Part shown: piece after piece, positions 2,825 to 11,772 of the stretch
Layout of the letters: the number at the start of each line of letters is the position of its first letter
Numbering within the stretch: position 1 is the stretch's first letter
Source of the DNA: a virus
Lineage: Duplodnaviria > Heunggongvirae > Uroviricota > Caudoviricetes
Length of the DNA stretch: 11,772 bases
Virus record (IMG/VR): IMGVR_UViG_2671180637_000006
Span: 1 to 11,772 of that record
Strand: one strand, 5' to 3'
Made by a program: the position numbers and the translations under genes
The notes under the pieces: model-generated
The model's input: only the letters and a program-made list of their open reading frames with translations
Databases searched by the model: none
What the model was told of the DNA's origin: nothing

Positions 2825-3898
2825 TTACTTGCCATTTTTTAATGAATTGATTAACGATGCTATTTGCTCTATGCCATCAAATGTAGATGGTATCTTATCA
2901 TCGGATAGCATGATGTTCGAAAATACGACATCTTCAAATTTTGAAAGCGCTTCCGGATTGTTTTTCCTTATCTCTGAGGAATAGTCGCTATAACTCTGAA
3001 TAAACTGACAAAGGCTCTTTCTGAGTTCTATTTGCATAATCTGAGTTCGTAACGATATGTGATTTATCAGTACAACTCTAAAGTAATAAATGAAAATCAA
3101 TGTGACTGATGCAAAAGGTAGTGCTGACATGAAATATGTGGCAGCATTTGTCGTTTCGAGAGTTGGTAATTTATGCACTCCATAGTATATCAGCGGGGAT
3201 GGGATGATTATAGCTAAGATGACAAGGATTATTCTTGATAGTAAAATTTCACGATCTTTCTTTTTGCCAAGTGAATTAAAGCCTTCAAACAATCCAACAA
3301 AATTAAATGCGACCTCATACCCTTTCAATGATTCTTTAATTGACTCTATTTTGGTATGTTGTTCTTTTAAAAAGGACTCGCATTTTTCGAAAAATTGACG
3401 ACCTTCGCTTAAACTATCAATATATTTTTTATATGTGTCCACATTGCCTGAGCTTAAAACTTCTTTAACCATTGCTAATGGTAGTTCTCTAAGAGAAAAG
3501 TCTATCTGTGCTCTGCTTTGTTCATCGAATTCATTATAGTTATACAGCGCGAAATCCTTGATGGTTTTTAGTGGTGAAAAGAAAGTATCTGTCTCAGGAG
3601 AGAGAATACTTGGCTCAATAATAAATCTAAAAAAACAAGTGAATATAAAATTGATGCTGTTGTTATCCTCTCCCTTTTCTTTTAATAAGCTTGTAAAGGT
3701 ATTACCAATCCTGACAATGTTGTACTGGGATTTTTTGTCCCAATCTTCTGGGTTTTCAGAAATGAAGTCTATTGCTTGAGCAATTATTTTGTTTCTGTTT
3801 GATTCAAAGGTTGTGCTGGGTGTCAGCGTGTTCAAAAAGACCAGATAATCTTTGAACAATTCTTTCATTGTTTTTGATGAGAAAAAGTAAGTGTTCAT
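2825..3898 (-). CDS. Hypothetical membrane protein, no recognised domain (about 357 aa from ATG at 3898; 389 aa if started at the GTG at 3994); candidate anti-phage / abortive-infection effector
   Basis: Long minus-strand ORF filling the AT-rich island; stop TAA at 2825-2827. Two adjacent hydrophobic helices near the C-terminus (ILLSRIILVILAIIIPSPLIYYGV and ATYFMSALPFASVTLIFIYYFRVVLI) followed by a roughly 75 aa tail. Start is uncertain: the track start at 3994 is a GTG that overlaps the V start codon, and the in-frame ATGs at 3898 and 3868 both lack a good SD. Confidence 0.6.
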   Translation of the reverse strand: MNTYFFSSKTMKELFKDYLVFLNTLTPSTTFESNRNKIIAQAIDFISENPEDWDKKSQYNIVRIGNTFTSLLKEKGEDNNSINFIFTCFFRFIIEPSILSPETDTFFSPLKTIKDFALYNYNEFDEQSRAQIDFSLRELPLAMVKEVLSSGNVDTYKKYIDSLSEGRQFFEKCESFLKEQHTKIESIKESLKGYEVAFNFVGLFEGFNSLGKKKDREILLSRIILVILAIIIPSPLIYYGVHKLPTLETTNAATYFMSALPFASVTLIFIYYFRVVLINHISLRTQIMQIELRKSLCQFIQSYSDYSSEIRKNNPEALSKFEDVVFSNIMLSDDKIPSTFDGIEQIASLINSLKNGK

Positions 3899-3984
3899 TA
3901 TGGATTTTGTTGTCCCTTGTTGTTCTGTGCACCAGAAATCGTTGCGTGATTTACTTTGGGATTGTACAGAATCATTATTCTCGA
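3899..3984. promoter_or_regulatory. Divergent intergenic region expected to contain the late promoter for the V operon (P2 P_V equivalent)
   Basis: By synteny, P2 has a late promoter upstream of V. The region contains TGTTGTT at 3918-3924 followed by ACCAG, a motif also present upstream of FI. I could not find an exact TGT-N12-ACA dyad. Confidence 0.3.
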
Positions 3985-4614
3985 ATGAATACACAATACA
4001 ATGAAATACTTCGCTTTATACGCAATATGATTCGCACCGGCATTATCGTCGAAACCGACCTTAACGCCGGTCGCTGCCGTGTGCAGACCGGCGGCATGTG
4101 TACCGACTGGCTTCAGTGGCTGACCCATCGCGCCGGACGTTCGCGCACGTGGTGGGCACCTTCCGTGGGGGAACAGGTGCTGATTCTGGCCGTGGGCGGT
4201 GAACTCGACACGGCGTTCGTTCTGCCGGGGATTTATTCCGGCGATAACCCCGCGCCGTCTGCGTCGGCGGATGCCCTGCATATCCGTTTCCCTGACGGGG
4301 CGGTGATTGAGTATGAACCTGAAACCAGTGCACTCACGGTAAGCGGAATTAAAACGGCCAGCGTGACGGCTTCTGATTCTGTTACTGCCACGGTGCCCGT
4401 GGTCACGGTGAAAGCATCAACCCGTGTCACTCTGGACACGCCGGAGGTGGTCTGCACAAACAGGCTGATTACCGGCACGCTGGAAGTGCAGAAGGGCGGG
4501 ACGATGCGCGGCAACATTGAACACACCGGCGGTGAACTCTCATCAAACGGTAAGGTACTGCATACCCATAAACACCCCGGCGACAGCGGCGGCACAACCG
4601 GGAGTCCTCTATGA
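3985..4614 (+). CDS. V: Baseplate spike protein V (P2 gpV-like), 209 aa
   Basis: ATG at 3985 (MNTQYNEILRFIRNMIRTGIIVETDLNAGRCRVQTGG...). C-terminus ...HTHKHPGDSGGTTGSPL is typical of the gpV spike. The track ORF starting at 3868 is an upstream extension. Confidence 0.9.
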   Translation: MNTQYNEILRFIRNMIRTGIIVETDLNAGRCRVQTGGMCTDWLQWLTHRAGRSRTWWAPSVGEQVLILAVGGELDTAFVLPGIYSGDNPAPSASADALHIRFPDGAVIEYEPETSALTVSGIKTASVTASDSVTATVPVVTVKASTRVTLDTPEVVCTNRLITGTLEVQKGGTMRGNIEHTGGELSSNGKVLHTHKHPGDSGGTTGSPL

Positions 4615-4958
4615 CAGCGCGTTATCTCGGAATGAATCGCAGTGATGGCCTGACTGTCACTGACCTTGAGCATATCAGCCAGAGTATCGGCGATATCCTG
4701 CGCACACCGGTCGGCTCACGGGTGATGCGTCGTGATTACGGCTCGTTGCTGGCGTCAATGATTGACCAGCCGCAGACTCCGGCGCTTGAGTTGCAGATTA
4801 AGGTCGCCTGTTACATGGCTGTGCTGAAATGGGAACCCCGCGTCACCCTGTCATCTGTCACCACGGCGCGCAGCTTTGACGGGCGAATGACAGTTACGTT
4901 AACCGGCCAGCACAACGACACCGGCCAGCCACTTTCGTTAACCATCCCTGTGAGTTGA
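4611..4958 (+). CDS. W: Baseplate assembly protein W (P2 gpW-like, gp25-type), 115 aa
   Basis: ATG at 4611 overlapping the V stop (ATGA), GGAG at 4601-4604. Sequence and size match P2 gpW. Confidence 0.9.
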   Translation: MTARYLGMNRSDGLTVTDLEHISQSIGDILRTPVGSRVMRRDYGSLLASMIDQPQTPALELQIKVACYMAVLKWEPRVTLSSVTTARSFDGRMTVTLTGQHNDTGQPLSLTIPVS

Positions 4959-4962
4959 AACC

Positions 4963-5871
4963 ATGCCGATTATCGACCTGAACCAGCTACCCGCACCGGA
5001 TGTGGTCGAGGAGCTGGATTTTGAAACCATTCTTGCTGAACGCAAGGCGACACTGATTTCCCTTTACCCGGAAGACCAGCAGGAGGCGGTCGCCCGTACC
5101 CTGACGCTGGAATCTGAGCCTCTCGTCAAACTGCTGGAGGAAAATGCTTATCGTGAGCTTATCTGGCGTCAGCGTGTGAATGAGGCCGCACGGGCGGTGA
5201 TGCTGGCCTGTGCCGCCGGTAATGACCTTGATGTGATTGGTGCCAATTACAACACCACGCGCCTGATTATCACTCCGGCAGATGATTCGACCCTCCCGCC
5301 GACACCGGCCGTGATGGAATCTGACACCGATTATCGTCTGCGTATTCAGCAGGCCTTTGAAGGTTTAAGCGTCGCCGGGTCGGTGGGTGCCTATCAGTAT
5401 CATGGTCGCAGTGCTGACGGGCGTGTCGCGGATATCTCTGTCACCAGTCCGTCTCCGGCCTGCGTCACCATCTCCGTGCTGTCACGTGAAAATAACGGTG
5501 TCGCATCCGAAGACCTGCTGGCCGTGGTGCGTAACGCCCTTAATGGTGAGGACGTCAGGCCGGTGGCCGACCGCGTGACCGTGCAGTCTGCCGCCATTGT
5601 TGAATATCAGATAAACGCCACGCTTTACCTTTACCCAGGCCCCGAAAGCGAACCCATCCGCGCTGCCGCCGTGAAAAAACTGGAAGCGTATATCACAGCA
5701 CAGCACCGGCTGGGGCGTGACATCCGTCTGTCTGCCATTTATGCCGCTTTGCATGTGGAAGGTGTGCAGCGTGTCGAACTGGCTGCACCACTGGCCGACA
5801 TCGTGCTCAACAGTACGCAGGCGTCTTTCTGTACCGAATACCGCGTCGTGACCGGAGGCTCGGATGAGTGA
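4963..5871 (+). CDS. J: Baseplate protein J (P2 gpJ-like), 302 aa
   Basis: ATG at 4963, 4 nt after the W stop. Sequence MPIIDLNQLPAPDVVEELDFETILAERKA... Same size as P2 gpJ. Confidence 0.9.
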   Translation: MPIIDLNQLPAPDVVEELDFETILAERKATLISLYPEDQQEAVARTLTLESEPLVKLLEENAYRELIWRQRVNEAARAVMLACAAGNDLDVIGANYNTTRLIITPADDSTLPPTPAVMESDTDYRLRIQQAFEGLSVAGSVGAYQYHGRSADGRVADISVTSPSPACVTISVLSRENNGVASEDLLAVVRNALNGEDVRPVADRVTVQSAAIVEYQINATLYLYPGPESEPIRAAAVKKLEAYITAQHRLGRDIRLSAIYAALHVEGVQRVELAAPLADIVLNSTQASFCTEYRVVTGGSDE

Positions 5872-6394
5872 TTCGCGACTGCTGCCGACCGGCTCATCAC
5901 CGCTTGAAGTTGCCGCCGCAAAAGCCTGTGCGGAAATTGAAAAAACGCCGGTCAGGATTCGTGAGCTGTGGAACCCGGACACCTGCCCGGCAAATCTGCT
6001 GCCGTGGCTGGCGTGGGCGTTTTCGGTCGACAGATGGGATGAAAAGTGGCCGGAAGCGACAAAACGCGCCGTTATCCGCGATGCGTATTTCATCCACTGT
6101 CATAAAGGCACTATAGGTGCAATCCGGCGTGTGGTGGAGCCGCTCGGCTATCTCATCAACGTGACGGAGTGGTGGGAAAACAGTGACCCGCCCGGCACCT
6201 TCCGGCTTGATATTGGTGTACTGGAAAGTGGCATCACAGAGGCAATGTATCAGGAAATGGAACGGCTGATTGCTGATGCCAAACCTGCAAGCCGTCACCT
6301 TATTGGCCTGAACATTACCCGGGACATTCCCGGCTACCTGTTCGCCGGTGGTGTGGCTTACGACGGCGATGTAATTACGGTTTACCCCGGATAA
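5864..6394 (+). CDS. I: Baseplate / tail formation protein I (P2 gpI-like), 176 aa
   Basis: ATG at 5864 overlapping the J stop (5869-5871). Sequence MSDSRLLPTGSSPLEVAAAKACAEIEKTPVRIRELW... Same size as P2 gpI. Confidence 0.9.
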   Translation: MSDSRLLPTGSSPLEVAAAKACAEIEKTPVRIRELWNPDTCPANLLPWLAWAFSVDRWDEKWPEATKRAVIRDAYFIHCHKGTIGAIRRVVEPLGYLINVTEWWENSDPPGTFRLDIGVLESGITEAMYQEMERLIADAKPASRHLIGLNITRDIPGYLFAGGVAYDGDVITVYPG

Positions 6395-6404
6395 GTGAGG
6401 AATA

Positions 6405-8723
6405 ATGAGCACAAAATTCAAAACCGTTATCACCACTGCCGGTGCAGCAAAGCTGGCAGCGGCAACCGCACCGGGAGGGCGGAAGGTCAACATTACCACG
6501 ATGGCCGTCGGGGATGGCGGTGGTAAATTGCCTGTCCCGGATGCCGGACAGACCGGGCTTATCCACGAAGTCTGGCGACATGCGCTGAACAAAATCAGTC
6601 AGGACAAACGAAACAGTAATTATATTATCGCAGAGCTGGTTATTCCGCCGGAGGTGGGCGGTTTCTGGATGCGTGAGCTTGGCCTGTACGATGATGCGGG
6701 AACGCTAATTGCCGTGGCAAACATGGCCGAAAGTTATAAACCAGCTCTTGCCGAAGGCTCAGGGCGTTCGCAGACCTGCCGCATGGTCATCATCGTCAGC
6801 AGTGTGGCCTCAGTGGAGCTGACCATTGACACCACAACGGTGATGGCGACGCAGGATTACGTTGATGACAAAATTGCAGAGCACGAACAGTCACGACGTC
6901 ACCCGGACGCTTCGCTGACCGCAAAAGGTTTTACTCAGTTAAGCAGTGCGACCAACAGCACGTCTGAAACACTGGCTGCAACGCCGAAAGCGGTAAAGGC
7001 CGCGTATGACCTTGCTAACGGGAAATATACCGCGCAGGATGCCACCACCGCGCGAAAAGGCCTTGTTCAGCTCAGTAGTGCGACTAACAGCACGTCTGAA
7101 ACGATCGCCGCAACGCCAAAGGCGGTTAAGACAGCGTATGACCTTGCTAACGGGAAATACACTGCACAGGACGCCACTACAGCGCGAAAAGGTCTTGTCC
7201 AGCTCAGTAGCGCCACCAACAGCGATTCTGAAACGCTTGCGGCAACACCAAAGGCGGTTAAGACAGCGTATGACCTTGCTAACGGGAAATACACTGCACA
7301 GGATGCCACCACGGCGCGAAAAGGGCTTGTCCAGCTCAGTAGCGCCACCAACAGTGATTCTGAAACCCTCGCGGCAACGCCAAAAGCAGTGAAGTCTGCC
7401 TATGACAATGCTGAAAAACGTCTTCAGAAAGATCAGAACGGTGCGGATATTCCGGGAAAGGATACCTTCACGAAAAATATCGGTGCCTGTCGTGCTTATA
7501 GCGGCGCTTTGAGCACTGAAGCCGGAAACTGGACAACCGCTCAGTTTATTGACTGGCTAGAGTCTCAGGGAGCCTTTAATCATCCCTACTGGATGTGCAA
7601 AGGCTCCTGGTCATATGCAAATAACAAAATCATTACGGATACCGGATGTGGTGATATCCACCTGGCTGGTTGTGTCGTCGAGGTCATGGGAACTAAATCT
7701 GCAATCACTATCCGAGTGACCACGCCGACAACATCAAGTGGTGGCGGTACAACCAGCGCGCAATTCACTTACATTAATCATGGGGACGGCTACTCCCCCG
7801 GCTGGCGTCGTGACTGGAATCGTCAGGGCGACGCAATGACCGGAACGATTAATCAGGACGGTGGAAGCCAGAATGCCTATATGTCTACGGCCTTATGTTC
7901 AGGCACCAGAGGCGGCAAAAAATATCTCAGAAAGTTTCGTGGTGGAGAAGGAGATACTATCTGGCATGAAACAGTACAGGGCGGGGTAATTCGCTGGGCG
8001 ACAGGAAACTATGACACTCAGGAAGAATTATCACTCAGCTCCGCTTATGGTCTCCGTTCAAGAGGTGAAATTACATCACTCAGTGCTAATGGTCTGCGCA
8101 TTGCTTATGGCAATTATGGATTCTTTATCAGGAATGATGGCGGCAGCACATATTTAATGCTGACGGCCTCTGGCGATAAATTTGGGACATGGAACGGTTT
8201 AAGACCGCTGACTATCAATAACGCTAATGGCGGAGTGTCAATGGGGCATGGCCTGAGTGTTACAGGTGATATTGTCTCAAGTACCAAAGTACGTGCCGGT
8301 AGCGGGAAAAAGTTCACGGTCAGCAGCAGCAATACATCCACGAAGGAAGCCGCATTCAATTTGTGGGGAAACTCAAGTCGTCCTGTGGTGGCTGAATTAG
8401 GTGATGATGCAGGCTGGCATTTTTACAGTCAGAGAAATACAGATAACAGCATCACTTTTGCTGTTAACGGGCAGGTATCACCATCTAACTATAGTAATTT
8501 TGATTCACGCTATGTCCGGGATATCCGGCTTGGTGGTGCTGCCACATACAAACCTGCGAACAATGGCATGACATGGACACATCAGGCACCGTCCGGGTGT
8601 GTATATTCCGGCATTATTGTTCAGGATACCGGCTCAAACTCTGCCGATAACATTGGTGGCATATATTACAGACCGGTGCAGAAATACATTAACGGGACAT
8701 GGTATAACGTAGCGCAGGTATAA
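6405..8723 (+). CDS. H: Tail fiber protein H (P2 gpH-like N-terminus, repeat-expanded shaft, divergent distal domain), 772 aa
   Basis: ATG at 6405 with GTGAGG at 6395-6400. N-terminal roughly 150 aa (MSTKFKTVITTAGAAKLAAATAPGG...) is P2 H-like. Then 44-aa phage-tail-fiber-type repeats, then a Gly/Ser/Thr/Asn-rich distal domain encoded by AT-richer DNA. Confidence 0.9.
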   Translation: MSTKFKTVITTAGAAKLAAATAPGGRKVNITTMAVGDGGGKLPVPDAGQTGLIHEVWRHALNKISQDKRNSNYIIAELVIPPEVGGFWMRELGLYDDAGTLIAVANMAESYKPALAEGSGRSQTCRMVIIVSSVASVELTIDTTTVMATQDYVDDKIAEHEQSRRHPDASLTAKGFTQLSSATNSTSETLAATPKAVKAAYDLANGKYTAQDATTARKGLVQLSSATNSTSETIAATPKAVKTAYDLANGKYTAQDATTARKGLVQLSSATNSDSETLAATPKAVKTAYDLANGKYTAQDATTARKGLVQLSSATNSDSETLAATPKAVKSAYDNAEKRLQKDQNGADIPGKDTFTKNIGACRAYSGALSTEAGNWTTAQFIDWLESQGAFNHPYWMCKGSWSYANNKIITDTGCGDIHLAGCVVEVMGTKSAITIRVTTPTTSSGGGTTSAQFTYINHGDGYSPGWRRDWNRQGDAMTGTINQDGGSQNAYMSTALCSGTRGGKKYLRKFRGGEGDTIWHETVQGGVIRWATGNYDTQEELSLSSAYGLRSRGEITSLSANGLRIAYGNYGFFIRNDGGSTYLMLTASGDKFGTWNGLRPLTINNANGGVSMGHGLSVTGDIVSSTKVRAGSGKKFTVSSSNTSTKEAAFNLWGNSSRPVVAELGDDAGWHFYSQRNTDNSITFAVNGQVSPSNYSNFDSRYVRDIRLGGAATYKPANNGMTWTHQAPSGCVYSGIIVQDTGSNSADNIGGIYYRPVQKYINGTWYNVAQV
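6924..7406 (+). repeat. In-frame tandem repeat array, about 3.7 copies of a 132-bp (44-codon) unit, inside H
   Basis: Unit K-G-[FL]-[TV]-QLSSATNS[TD]SET[LI]AATPKAVK[AT]AYDLANGKYTAQDATTAR starts at 6924, 7056, 7188 and 7320 (partial). Copies differ at a minority of nucleotides, so they are diverged, not identical. Confidence 0.85.
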
Positions 8724-8726
8724 TTT

Positions 8727-9254
8727 ATGCAGCATTTGATAAATATAACGGCGGGTAATCCAAAAACAGTTGAACAATATCAATTGACAAAGGACTTTGA
8801 TGTTGTCTGGTTTTTTACAGAAGATGGTAAGAACTGGTACGAAGAACAAAAGTATTTTGCTGATGACACGATAAAAATAGCGTACGACAAAGATAATATC
8901 ATCCGCTATGTGGAAAAGGATGTGACAGCTATCAGACCGGATGGATTAAGTGTTGTTGAAGTGCCGGATATTACTGCTAACCGACGGGCGGACATTTCAG
9001 GGAACTGGATGTTTAAGGACGGTACAGTGATTAAACGAATTTATACGGCAGAGGAATTGCAGCAGCAGGCAGAAAATCGGAAAGCCAGACTTCTTGCAGA
9101 TGCTGAATCCGTGATTTTGCCGCTGGAGCGCGCTGTCAGGCTGAATATGGCAACAGATGAGGAGCGCAGTCGACTGGAGGCATGGGAACGCTACAGTGTT
9201 CTGGTCAGTCGTGTGGATCCTGCAAATCCTGAATGGCCGGAAATGCCGCAATAA
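8727..9254 (+). CDS. G: Tail fiber assembly chaperone G (Tfa family), 175 aa
   Basis: ATG at 8727, 3 nt after the H stop. AT-rich N-terminal two-thirds and a GC-richer conserved C-terminus (...[29 protein letters not shown]), as expected for a chaperone co-varying with the fiber tip. Confidence 0.85.
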
Positions 9255-9289
9255 GTTGTATGAGCTCTGGTGTGAGCTTACATATCTAT

Positions 9290-9339
9290 GGCACAGAGTA
9301 AAGCCTAATCTGAGAGTCCGCTCTGTGCCAGGAGCGGAC
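9290..9339 (+). other. Two overlapping, mutually exclusive hairpins just downstream of G
   Basis: GGCACAGAG (9290-9298) pairs with CTCTGTGCC (9321-9329); GTCCGCTC (9316-9323) pairs with GAGCGGAC (9332-9339). The stems share nt 9321-9323. No clean U-tract follows. Confidence 0.3.
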
Positions 9340-9467
9340 GTTCGTATGCTTGGCAACTTTGGTTTTCCTGAGTTCAACTTAACCACCTATGTATCATCGT
9401 AGCCTCTATAGAATAATCATTTTAAAACCTTTTAATATTTGGTAATATGTATTCTATAGTGATCATT

Positions 9468-9510
9468 ATTTCCTATCTCCACGACAGTTATGAGATAGGA
9501 AATTTAATAT
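9468..9510 (+). promoter_or_regulatory. Perfect 12-bp inverted repeat (candidate operator) overlapping a possible sigma70 promoter for the TIR-like gene
   Basis: ATTTCCTATCTC (9468-9479), 12-nt spacer, GAGATAGGAAAT (9492-9503). A -10-like TAATAT at 9505-9510 and a weak -35-like ACGACA at 9481-9486 lie about 40 nt upstream of the ATG at 9547. Confidence 0.35.
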
Positions 9511-9546
9511 AGATGTCGTAATGATGACGATAAAAGTTGAGATGTC

Positions 9547-10512
9547 ATGACCAGTATATTTATATCCTATGCCAGAGAAGACTTTTTAATTGCAAAAAAA
9601 CTAACCGAAGAACTAAATCGACATGAGTACAAGGTATTTTTGGATCAACAATCGATTCAGCTTGGGGCTCATTGGCAAGAAGATATACTGAAGCATTTAA
9701 AAAATGCGGATGTATTTATCGCACTTGTTACTGAACATAGCGATAAGTCTTATTATTTTAATGCAGAGGTTACTGGCGCTATATCCTATGTAGCTCATAG
9801 CAATCGGGATAAACTTATTTTGCCAGTGGTGCTGGATAAAGAAGTGCTTAATGATAGCGATCTTGGGGCCTTCCAAGCATTATTCGCACGCTCTGATGAT
9901 ATGACATACCTCGTACATGAAATTGTGAATGCTATCAGCCGCTTCGAAGGTGCCCGACTAGCTCAGGAAGAGATAAAAGAAATTCGAGCACAAGTTCTTA
10001 AAGATGAATCAGCCGATTACATAAGCGAAACAATTGAGGATCTTAAGGCGCGCGAAAAAGCTGGTCGCCAATTATCGTCAAGATGGCATTTTGCTGGATA
10101 TGCGGCATTAATACTTTCTGTCATTTTCGTATTTATTCTTTGGTATTTGGCTGAGCGTTCATTTGTACAATCACCTCTTGATACCACTAGACTGGTTTTC
10201 GATGCCATTAAGGGCGTAACGGTTGTTGCGTTACTTTTGGGCTTGGCAAGATATTCATTTTTAATGGCGAAAACTCATCAATTAGAAGCTTTGAAGAACG
10301 CCGATCGTCTGCACGCCATTTCTTTTGGGAAATTTTATATGCGCGTTTTCTCTACGCAAATATCTCAATCTGAATTAAAAGAAGTATTTCAACATTGGAA
10401 TACTTCAGGGGCGTCAGATTTGTCGCATCTTGATGTAGATAAAATTGACTCGCGATTTATTGAACTCTTTGGGAAAATCGCATCAAGATTTGATGGCAAA
10501 AATAAATCTTAA
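9547..10512 (+). CDS. TIR-like domain protein fused to a C-terminal two-helix membrane hairpin, 321 aa; candidate anti-phage effector
   Basis: ATG at 9547. N-terminus fits the TIR pattern: IFISYAREDF (betaA), KVFLD (betaB), ADVFIALVTEHSDKSYYFNAEV (betaC/alphaC with Glu74 at the position of the conserved TIR glutamate). Residues about 130-180 are charged and helical. Hydrophobic helices FAGYAALILSVIFVFILWYLA and GVTVVALLLGLARYSFLMA, then an 80-aa tail. Confidence 0.6.
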   Translation: MTSIFISYAREDFLIAKKLTEELNRHEYKVFLDQQSIQLGAHWQEDILKHLKNADVFIALVTEHSDKSYYFNAEVTGAISYVAHSNRDKLILPVVLDKEVLNDSDLGAFQALFARSDDMTYLVHEIVNAISRFEGARLAQEEIKEIRAQVLKDESADYISETIEDLKAREKAGRQLSSRWHFAGYAALILSVIFVFILWYLAERSFVQSPLDTTRLVFDAIKGVTVVALLLGLARYSFLMAKTHQLEALKNADRLHAISFGKFYMRVFSTQISQSELKEVFQHWNTSGASDLSHLDVDKIDSRFIELFGKIASRFDGKNKS

Positions 10513-10642
10513 CTAAGGATTCTTCTTGTCAGGGCTGGCAATCAATTTAAGCCCGCTATTCGCTCAAAGCAGACTATCAGATTTGATAGCGTTTGGGCTA
10601 TGTAAATTGTCAGTCGGAAAATGAGCGTGTACAAATCATGAC

Positions 10643-10670
10643 AGGCGGGCTGATTGCCCGCCTTTTCTTT
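10643..10670 (+). terminator. Rho-independent terminator downstream of the TIR-like gene
   Basis: GC stem AGGCGGGC (10643-10650), loop TGATT, GCCCGCC (10656-10662), then TTTTCTTT (10663-10670). Confidence 0.7.
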
Positions 10671-10765
10671 ATCTGTTGTTTCATCCACTGACCAGCCAGG
10701 TCAAATAGCATCTCATGCTCTGCACAACAGAAAATAGTTGCACCCATTAACCACGGAGTTAAACG
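10671..10765 (+). promoter_or_regulatory. Region expected to contain the late promoter for the FI operon (P2 P_F equivalent)
   Basis: By synteny, P2 has a late promoter upstream of FI. Contains TGTTGTT at 10674-10680 followed by ACCAG at 10691-10695, and the inverted pair TCTGTTGT (10672-10679) / ACAACAGA (10724-10731). GGAG at 10755-10758 is the RBS for FI. Confidence 0.3.
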
Positions 10766-11772
10766 GATGAGTGACTATCATCACGGCGTGCAGGTGCTGG
10801 AGATTAACGACGGCACCCGCGTCATTTCCACCGTATCCACTGCCATTGTCGGCATGGTCTGTACGGCCAGCGATGCGGATGCGGAATCCTTCCCCCTCAA
10901 TAAACCGGTGCTGATTACCAATGTGCAGAGTGCAATTGCAAAGGCCGGTAAAAAAGGCACGCTGGCGGCATCGTTGCAGGCCATCGCCGACCAGTCAAAA
11001 CCGGTCACCGTTGTTGTGCGCGTGGAGGACGGCACCGGCGACGACGAAGAAACGAAACTTGCGCAGACCGTTTCCAATATCATCGGCACCACCGACGAAA
11101 ACGGTCAGTACACCGGACTGAAAGCCCTGCTGGCGGCAGAGTCGGTAACCGGTGTTAAACCGCGCATTCTCGGTGTGCCGGGACTGGACACCAAAGAGGT
11201 GGCTGTTGCACTGGCATCCGTCTGTCAGAAGCTGCGCGCTTTCGGATATATCAGCGCATGGGGCTGTAAGACCATTTCCGAGGTGAAAGCCTACCGCCAG
11301 AATTTCAGCCAGCGTGAGCTGATGGTCATCTGGCCGGATTTCCTCGCATGGGATACGGTCACCAGTACCACCGCCACCGCGTATGCCACCGCCCGTGCGC
11401 TGGGGCTGCGCGCTAAAATCGACCAGGAGCAGGGCTGGCATAAAACGCTGTCCAACGTCGGGGTAAACGGTGTTACCGGCATCAGCGCATCTGTATTCTG
11501 GGATTTGCAGGAGTCCGGCACCGATGCTGACCTGCTTAACGAGTCAGGCGTCACTACGCTGATTCGCCGCGACGGTTTCCGATTCTGGGGTAACCGTACC
11601 TGCTCTGATGACCCGCTGTTCCTCTTTGAAAACTACACCCGCACCGCGCAGGTGATGGCCGACACGATGGCTGAGGCGCACATGTGGGCGGTGGACAAGC
11701 CCATCACCGCAACGCTGATTCGCGACATCGTTGACGGCATCAATGCCAAATTCCGTGAGCTGAAAACAAACG
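10766..11772 (+). CDS. FI: Tail sheath protein FI (P2 gpFI-like), 5' partial (runs off the window end)
   Basis: ATG at 10766 with GGAG at 10755-10758. Open frame to the window end reads MSDYHHGVQVLEINDGTRVISTVSTAIVGMVCTASDADAESFPLNKPVLITN..., which I recognise as the P2 tail sheath N-terminus. Confidence 0.9.

Follow-up and report, generated by a model that had tools for sequence, protein, structure and literature searches.

The P2-type tail fibre gene H of the prophage studied here carries an in-frame tandem array with a period of 132 nt (44 codons), located at approximately 6921-7415 and consisting of three full units followed by a 28-residue fourth head. This four-unit array is correct but ordinary, and its repeat family is already known. 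We call it ordinary because the family, Pfam PF03406 (Phage_fiber_2, phage tail fibre repeat), has been catalogued and because four is the commonest unit count among the related phages that we sampled. An ordinary PF03406 array in a P2-like gpH, probably acting as a shaft segment and as a site of recombination, is very probably all that is needed to explain it. The window, meaning the whole stretch of DNA that was analysed (11,772 nt), contained the following features.

3868-4614: gene V, matching its Pfam family
4611-4958: ORF assigned to gene W from its position
4963-5871: gene J, matching its Pfam family
5864-6394: gene I, matching its Pfam family
6405-8723, plus strand: gene H, P2-type tail fibre, 772 aa plus stop (from the ORF list and translation)
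6405-6857, plus strand: N-terminal tail-collar/baseplate-attachment domain of H, aa 1-151 (Pfam PF12571)
6930-7061, plus strand: repeat unit 1, aa 176-219, sequence FTQLSSATNSTSETLAATPKAVKAAYDLANGKYTAQDATTARKG
7062-7193, plus strand: repeat unit 2, aa 220-263; 83% nt identity to unit 1, with 40 of 44 aa identical
7194-7325, plus strand: repeat unit 3, aa 264-307; 89% nt identity to unit 2, with 42 of 44 aa identical
7326-7409, plus strand: repeat unit 4, head only, aa 308-335, sequence LVQLSSATNSDSETLAATPKAVKSAYDN; the fourth PF03406 stretch
7006-7392, plus strand: spurious ORF of 128 aa, in the +1 frame relative to H
7067-7351, minus strand: spurious antisense ORF of 94 aa
7410-8720, plus strand: distal receptor-binding half of H (PDB sequence matches, PF21446)
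8727-9254, plus strand: gene G, tail-fibre assembly chaperone paired with the tip (PF02413, PHROG 136)

Gene H matched the tail fibre family PHROG 381 (E-value of 1.6e-266) and is embedded in the gene order V-W-J-I-H-G, which matches that of P2 (NC_001895). Its N-terminus aligned to PF12571 over the full length of the profile (positions 1-150 of 150, E-value of 1.4e-58), and this domain is at least 98% identical across 80 IMG/VR loci. The PF12571 domain, the colinearity with P2 gpH and the gene order together identify H as a P2-type tail fibre gpH; a search of NCBIfam returned no model naming the H protein. From nt 1 to an end point between nt 728 and 1376, H shares 94-97% identity with P2-type phages, namely Wphi and an entry titled Peduovirus P2. 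As judged from sequence, the host prophage is a Peduovirus (P2-like) residing in E. coli. The distal half of H is a mosaic, with aa 333-487 resembling Mu Sv' and aa 519-771 resembling the Mu Sv tip. Its sequence matches in the PDB were 8ju3 (E-value of 9.7e-92) and 5yvq (E-value of 5.4e-61), and a Pfam search placed PF21446 at aa 541-604. The downstream gene G matched PF02413 (E-value of 1.2e-34) and PHROG 136 (E-value of 2.9e-79). GC content drops to 0.43-0.47 across 8000-9200.

An earlier note on this DNA had proposed an in-frame 132-bp (44-residue) repeat of about 3.7 copies, situated between the N-terminal and distal domains of H. Self-comparison of the array gave a clear signal at a lag of 132 nt: within 6924-7406, base identity was 0.86 at lag 132 and 0.80 at lag 264, against a mean of 0.257 (sd 0.039) at other lags and a maximum of 0.33 in 1000 shuffles. 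Tandem Repeats Finder reported a period of 132 with 3.5 copies, 87% matches and zero indels at 6951-7406 (score 639), and a repeat search found three 226-nt copies, spaced by exactly 132 nt, at 6923-7412. The remainder of the H gene was scanned for in-frame periodicity, and none was found besides the array. Periodicity and frame are thus established, and the placement stands as well, with PF12571 (aa 1-151) before the array and the distal half after it.

Each unit begins with a head of 28 conserved residues (G-x-V-Q-L-S-S-A-T-N-S-x-S-E-T-x-A-A-T-P-K-A-V-K-x-A-Y-D), in agreement with the consensus that had been read from units 1-3, and continues with a 16-residue linker (LANGKYTAQDATTARK). Unit 4 retains 28 residues of this pattern, beyond which it diverges, and the end of the array is the start of the distal module. 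PF03406 matched the array in four stretches (E-value of 1.7e-77) and scored 255.2 bits, against a gathering cut-off of 22. The best stretch covered aa 170-210 and profile positions 1-41 of 42, and the period of 44 aa agrees with the tandem repeats of about 40 residues in tail-fibre proteins by which the family is defined. A global search recovered 990 cluster representatives with the unit, at 2-17 stretches per protein, and a second profile round found one protein with 18. Highly diverse fibre proteins of great length also contain the head motif.

The units have diverged substantially at the DNA level. Units 1-3 share 80-89% DNA identity, with a dS of 0.47-1.03 and a dN/dS of about 0.08, and they differ mostly at third codon positions. 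In comparisons with 39 other four-copy genes, the mean identity of units 1 to 4 to same-numbered units was 0.96, 0.89, 0.96 and 0.93, against 0.72-0.87 to differently numbered units. The first 84 nt of unit 1 were on average 96% identical to unit 1 of those genes, and units 2 and 3 were on average nearest to unit 2 (0.886) and unit 3 (0.957) elsewhere. The units are therefore old paralogues under strong purifying selection that are positionally orthologous between phages, and the dS values and positional orthology bear out the suggestion of an old duplication.

The two ORFs that overlap the array, at 7006-7392 and 7067-7351, had been suspected of being artefacts of the repeat, and both are periodic read-throughs without a Pfam match; the translation of the former contains MTLLTGN... 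three times. Across 40 four-copy arrays, 13, 18 and 87 columns were variable at H codon positions 1, 2 and 3, respectively, which indicates that selection acts on the H frame. The lack of a family match, the periodic translations and this substitution pattern led us to reject both ORFs as genes. Two of the three antisense frames were largely open over the arrays of 50 related genes (mean fractions of 0.90 and 0.69), likely because H, in its own frame, seldom uses codons whose reverse complement is a stop. Outside protein coding, the complete window had no match in Rfam, a promoter and terminator scan revealed nothing notable in the array, and no inverted repeats were found in 6700-7600.

How typical four units are was determined in 78 IMG/VR genes, chosen as complete and having the same N-terminal domain as H. 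These contained one (3 genes), two (25), three (2), four (40) or five (8) units, and the unit-to-unit spacing was exactly 44 aa in all 181 cases. One of them, with five units and the same junction type, encodes 816 aa and is thus exactly 44 aa longer than the 772-aa form. Forms with five and six units were also present among NCBI proteins, so that P2-type H genes overall have one to six units, always in exact 44-residue steps. Repeat number had been proposed as a source of fibre-length polymorphism, and the range of one to five units in the IMG/VR genes, and of up to six in NCBI proteins, confirms this. The description of the array as an expansion of the shaft holds relative to P2 itself, but not otherwise, since four is the most frequent unit count (40 of the 78 genes).

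Recombination has left its mark at the unit heads. Alignments of H with its counterparts in other phages break off at query nt 728, 854 and 990, in every case no more than a few codons from a unit's AATPKAVK core (unit 2, 3 or 4). Several phage H matches stop at nt 990 (position 7394), and another group stops at nt 1049, just beyond the array. The 78 IMG/VR genes display 54 head/linker-type architectures. In the four-gamete test, the proportion of incompatible site pairs was 0.49 for the array, 0.29 for the N-terminal domain and 0.26 for the part downstream, with Rm values per kb of 51, 19 and 34, respectively; as recurrent synonymous mutation and conversion between paralogous units can both raise such counts, 'hotspot' is to be read in a relative sense. 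Within the first 1.4 kb of H, recombination signals were densest in the array. Both the breakpoints at unit heads and the highest four-gamete incompatibility agree with the recombination hotspot that the earlier note had anticipated.

We suggest that the three full units and the terminal head link the baseplate anchor to a horizontally acquired, Mu-S-like receptor-binding half. Tail fibres are typically trimers, and the H fibre is presumably trimeric likewise; in such a fibre the units may form a proximal shaft segment, to which each unit would add a fixed increment of length. The conserved DNA of the heads could allow unequal homologous crossing-over, resulting in the gain or loss of units. 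The same DNA could also support homologous exchange, through which one baseplate anchor would receive different distal modules along with their chaperones.

Unit count follows tip type. P2-type tips occur with one or two units and Mu-type tips with three to six; the GKDTFTKNIGACRAY tip type has mostly four units, and the DKRLFLRNIG type mostly five or three. This association could reflect linkage rather than function. It is possible, if rather unlikely, that copy-number differences are neutral by-products of tip-swapping recombination that hitch-hike with the distal module. Beyond the association with tip type, this would fit the observation that Y. pestis EV76 strains were the isolation hosts of both a three-unit and a four-unit phage with nearly identical tips. 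Such neutrality is compatible with the ordinary array that we favour, save for the adaptive gloss of the latter.

We infer a shaft or spacer role for the array. An AlphaFold2 monomer prediction of aa 151-360, made with a shallow alignment of 10 sequences, was all-helical and of low confidence (mean pLDDT of 44, pTM of 0.26). PDB searches with the repeat region and with a profile built from 54 sequences of diverse heads retrieved the motif from Mu S chains only (5yvq, 8ju3 and 9ki1), and the main text of the Mu cryo-EM paper contains no statement of which N-terminal residues were built (PMC11915804). The fibres of Mu, which have one head, lie docked along the sheath (PMC11915804). Together with the very strong protein conservation of the head (dN/dS of about 0.08) and its recurrence in long and diverse fibre proteins, this would be consistent with a binding module, whether for sheath docking of a folded-back fibre or for weak glycan binding, with copy number setting avidity. 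We find this reading improbable, as a tightly packed trimeric repeat would predict equally strong conservation, and receptor specificity in such fibres has been assigned to the C-terminal part (PMC7460101).

We searched 5,426 complete E. coli genomes and found at least 80% of the H allele in 173 of them. The best 40 of these 173 aligned without gaps, had an identical length of 2,319 nt and came from diverse isolation sources. A recent, unstable expansion of the VNTR type, in which a hypermutable locus would frequently change fibre length within lineages, is very unlikely in view of this constant length, of units 1-3 being only 80-89% identical (dS of 0.47-1.03) and of each unit being nearest to same-numbered units in other phages. 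Copy number does vary between close relatives that share the N-terminal domain, and some genes have neighbouring units of one head and linker type (such as 'Cb Cb' and 'Eb Eb'), which resembles a recent single-unit duplication. Still, the concerted, near-identical units of a hypermutable VNTR or contingency repeat were not found in the array, and high-frequency switching of copy number is already unlikely on present data.

Draft assemblies often fragment tail-fibre genes, and the names of more than half of the best 120 protein matches at NCBI include 'partial'. Of these 120, 87 were without a recognised complete C-terminus, and 86 of the 87 extend past the array. The array had also been put forward as a hotspot for mis-assembly, a proposal that we rejected, as the incomplete proteins continue beyond the array with the sole exception of P0011, which stops inside a unit. 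Despite the many incomplete matches, a collapsed or inflated copy number can be dismissed: the units differ by 11-20% in DNA, so ordinary reads place them uniquely; 10 further 772-aa, four-unit genes were found among the IMG/VR loci; and the same ungapped 2,319-nt gene in the best 40 complete genomes supports the earlier judgement that the array does not result from assembly collapse.

Annotations of nearly identical fibres with four units already exist, both for isolated phages and for many of the complete E. coli genomes. For annotation, ORFs 7006-7392 and 7067-7351 should be discarded. For engineering, the conserved heads are natural sites at which receptor-binding tips could be joined in register to the anchor of P2 or of a tailocin; natural variants have one to six units, and isolated infective phages have two, three or four. 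More speculatively, and in our view doubtfully, the synonymous divergence between units, whose protein sequence is nearly constant, may be kept because it suppresses deletion through homologous recombination; selection would then match unit number to the distal module, so that the reach of the fibre suits the depth of the receptor in the LPS layer. If this were true, Peduoviruses would have in their unit number a host-range parameter that is heritable and can be tuned.

The ordinary array that we favour is best appreciated next to P2 itself, whose gpH has the same gene position, PF12571 domain, repeat family and 44-residue register. H is colinear with P2 gpH across the N-terminal domain and first unit with few substitutions, and the first 84 nt of unit 1 are 98% identical between the two. 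P2 gpH has one full unit and a terminal head (two heads), whereas this prophage has three and a head. The length of about 669 aa given for P2 gpH in the earlier note proved correct, at exactly 669 aa (NC_001895 12734-14743, NP_046775), and of the 103 additional residues in H, 88 correspond to two extra units and 15 to a longer distal part. The distal part of P2 gpH is a different module that begins ...AVKTVMDETNKKAPL. The original description of H/G mosaicism in P2 is reportedly that of Haggård-Ljungquist et al. in 1992.

Closer counterparts exist among other phages and prophages. The fibre of the E. coli O19:H7 730V1 prophage is of equal length (772 aa) and 97.7% identical; the RefSeq label of this 2,319-nt counterpart is tail fiber protein. 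Yersinia phage vB_YpM_46 shares 96% DNA identity with H over nt 1-2129 and has a fibre of 764 aa with four units, while that of Yersinia phage P37 has 720 aa and three units, exactly one fewer; both are annotated as tail fiber protein. These two fibres carry a distal part of 435 residues that is 94-100% identical over the first 360; there each is 93-100% identical to H, and their tips differ from H in the last ~80 residues. Both are isolated, plaque-forming phages with near-identical fibre genes.

The likeness to the repeats of P2 H and lambda Stf-type fibres that had been noticed reflects a shared family, as all belong to PF03406, with two copies in P2 H. Lambda Stf is where this repeat ('Pf2') was originally recognised, and prophage tail-fibre proteins consistently contain it (Ghosh et al. 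2012, PMC3368898). Lambda Stf-type side tail fibres and the collagen-like fibre proteins of EHEC prophages also have PF03406 repeats. There the repeats belong to side fibres of siphoviruses, whose N-terminal domains are of another kind (PF08400), and are sometimes found between collagen segments, whereas the repeats of this prophage follow a myovirus PF12571 anchor. The tail-fibre gene of Enterococcus phage EfV12-phi1 is said to have gained tandem duplications during coevolution. This is an analogy only, as phage and repeat are unrelated and the duplications there are recent laboratory events, in contrast to the old units described here. Finally, the distal half of H resembles Mu Sv' and Mu Sv (PDB 5yvq, 8ju3 and 9ki1), and Mu S contains, at aa 117-149, one head of the same motif (KGLVQLTSATDSPSETLAATAKAVKIAMDNANA) that leads into the same ...RL.KD.NGADIP junction. 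Mu differs in that its head is single and forms no array, in its N-terminal anchor, and in switching tips by means of an invertible G segment, which this prophage lacks.

The window comes from a P2-like (Peduovirus) prophage, of which it is the late-gene region. Its ORFs are ordered as in P2 (lysis genes, R, S, a cargo slot, V, W, J, I, H, G, a second cargo slot and the sheath gene), and some match to the window is present in roughly half of the 5,426 complete E. coli genomes. The tail-fibre gene H matches tail-fibre PHROGs (E-value of 1e-266). It shares 94–97% identity with P2-type phages over its first 728–1376 nt and 96% identity with Yersinia phage vB_YpM_46 over its first 2,129 nt, and the RefSeq annotation of strain 730V1 includes the same 2,319-nt gene. 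An earlier note had placed a 132-nt in-frame tandem repeat in H, which we confirmed with Tandem Repeats Finder (period 132, 3.5 copies, 87% matches, no indels, score 639), a repeat search (226-nt copies at exact 132-nt spacing) and lag-132 identity (0.86 in the array versus a background of 0.257 ± 0.039; maximum of 1000 shuffles 0.33). The periodic stretch spans 6921–7415, and a lag-identity scan of the gene found no periodicity in the rest of H. In Pfam, the array corresponds to four copies of PF03406 (Phage_fiber_2, 'phage tail fibre repeat'; 255 bits versus a cut-off of 22), flanked N-terminally by PF12571 at residues 1–151 and followed further downstream by a gp34-trimer-like segment. Each 44-residue unit consists of a conserved 28-residue head and a 16-residue linker:

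6405–8723, + strand: H, tail fibre, 772 aa
H residues 176–219: unit 1, full 44 residues
H residues 220–263: unit 2, full 44 residues
H residues 264–307: unit 3, full 44 residues
Following unit 3: unit 4, first 28 residues only, after which the sequence becomes ...SAYDNAEKRLQKDQNGADIP

Units 1–3 share 80–89% of their DNA sequence, yet 40–42 of their 44 residues are identical. Most differences fall at third codon positions (Nei-Gojobori dS 0.47–1.03, dN/dS ~0.08), and purifying selection on the units is strong. When compared by position with the units of 39 other four-unit genes, same-numbered units were closest on average (mean identities 0.96, 0.89, 0.96 and 0.93; off-diagonal 0.72–0.87). Because each unit is closest to its same-numbered counterpart, the units are positional orthologues older than the divergence of these phages, and a recent concerted expansion is rejected. 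Assembly collapse or inflation is excluded for practical purposes, as the gene has the same length in the best-matching complete genomes: at least 80% of the window's H allele is found in 173 complete E. coli genomes, the 40 best of which give a single ungapped alignment over 1–2319, and 730V1 carries the same-length gene. The copies thus reflect an old duplication, as the earlier note had proposed. Its suggestion of a mis-assembly hotspot was not supported: 87 of the 120 best protein matches lack a recognised complete C-terminus, but only one (P0011) stops within a repeat unit, while the remaining incomplete proteins continue beyond the array. Two ORFs overlapping the repeat, 7006–7392 (+) and 7067–7351 (−), give translations that are periodic, low in complexity and without a Pfam match. 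Across 40 arrays, variation is distributed 13:18:87 over the first, second and third codon positions of the H frame. Both ORFs are by-products of the repeat, as the earlier note had stated.

Repeat number was likewise borne out as a source of length polymorphism. Among 78 complete IMG/VR H genes with N-terminal domains at least 98% identical, we counted one head in 3 genes, two in 25, three in 2, four in 40 and five in 8, with a head-to-head spacing of exactly 44 aa in 181 of 181 cases. The commonest single class was the 772-aa four-unit form (n = 11 with the window counted). One gene of 816 aa shares its junction type and carries five units, a difference in length of exactly one unit (44 aa). 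Proteins with five and six units were found in E. coli. Two Yersinia phages that were both obtained on Y. pestis EV76 strains, P37 (720 aa, three units) and vB_YpM_46 (764 aa, four units), have equally long distal parts. Each of these parts is 93–100% identical to its counterpart in the window across the first 360 residues and differs from it only in the last ~80 residues. Copy number tracks the distal module, with 1–2 heads before P2-type tips and 3–6 before Mu-type tips, which may reflect linkage or functional matching. Among sampled loci L003–L082 and protein matches P0001–P0120, GKDTFTKNIGACRAY-type tips mostly follow four units and DKRLFLRNIG-type tips three or five.

Matches to the H genes of other phages stop at query nt 728, 854 and 990, positions that each fall a few codons at most from the AATPKAVK core in unit 2, 3 or 4; a further set stops at 1049, just beyond the array. 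Three distal continuations follow the terminal head in the sample (TVMDETNKK..., SAYDNAEKRLQKDQNGADIP... and AANDNANRRVP...), and clustering heads and linkers separately yielded 54 architectures in the 78 genes. Across 28 four-unit genes sharing the same junction, the fraction of informative site pairs failing the four-gamete test was 0.49 for the array, 0.29 for the N-terminal domain and 0.26 for the downstream part, and Rm per kb was 51, 19 and 34, respectively. Together with the breakpoints at heads, the higher values in the array support the proposed recombination hotspot, although such counts are also raised by recurrent mutation and by conversion between units. The distal half of H (7400–8720) is itself a hybrid, similar to the G(−) fibre Sv' of phage Mu (8ju3) at residues 333–487 and to the G(+) tip Sv of Mu (5yvq) at residues 519–771. 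GC content drops from 0.55 to 0.43–0.47 over 8000–9200, within this half and G (8727–9254).

The array combines PF03406 membership and a position between anchor and tip with a strict 44-residue register and stepwise copy-number variation. The units probably make up a trimeric segment of the shaft to which every unit adds the same rise; unequal crossing-over between heads would alter unit number, and homologous exchange at heads could swap tips. An AF2 monomer model of the repeat region was uninformative (pLDDT 44), and earlier modelling of the family was likewise unconvincing (PMC8078820). PDB searches by sequence and by profile recovered the motif only from phage Mu S chains.

Both cargo slots are occupied:

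2825–3994, − strand: cargo ORF, 389 aa, in a 33% GC island in the P2 orf30 slot between S and V
9547–10512, + strand: TIR-domain ORF, 321 aa, in a low-GC island (9200–10800)

The 389-aa ORF, whose counterpart in 730V1 is annotated as 357 aa by RefSeq, matches PHROG 9373 of unknown function (E-value of 2.7e-126) and had no match in Pfam, PADLOC or NCBIfam. The TIR gene fills the P2 Z/fun slot, with G on one side and the sheath gene on the other; in related prophages, this slot holds Shedu, SIR2+ATPase or DUF5677 genes. The protein pairs an N-terminal TIR domain (PF13676, E-value of 6e-21) with a hydrophobic C-terminal half that probably spans the membrane, and matched ThsB, Thoeris type III ThcB4, TIR-TM and retron-TIR models only below threshold. 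It is probably a candidate single-gene TIR-TM anti-phage system.

Ghosh et al. 2012, who refer to the repeat domain as Pf2, trace its first identification to lambda Stf and describe its structure and function as little known (PMC3368898). A one-unit query against 1.84 billion cluster representatives (E-value ≤ 0.001) identified 990 proteins with a PF03406-type unit, with 2–17 stretches each and including fibres of over 3,000 aa; a second profile round found 18 units in one of them. Certain PF03406 arrays in other proteins (P0121, P0122 and P0159) comprise 6–12 units and alternate between two linker types, one with a conserved ...SHTHPW / SHTHAW motif. The array is a textbook-type element, already known, catalogued and annotated, and the earlier observation and its interpretation were essentially right, including the P2 gpH length of 669 aa. 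Compared with that protein, which has two heads of the same repeat, the 772-aa H of the window has four, and 88 of its 103 extra residues are the two extra units.
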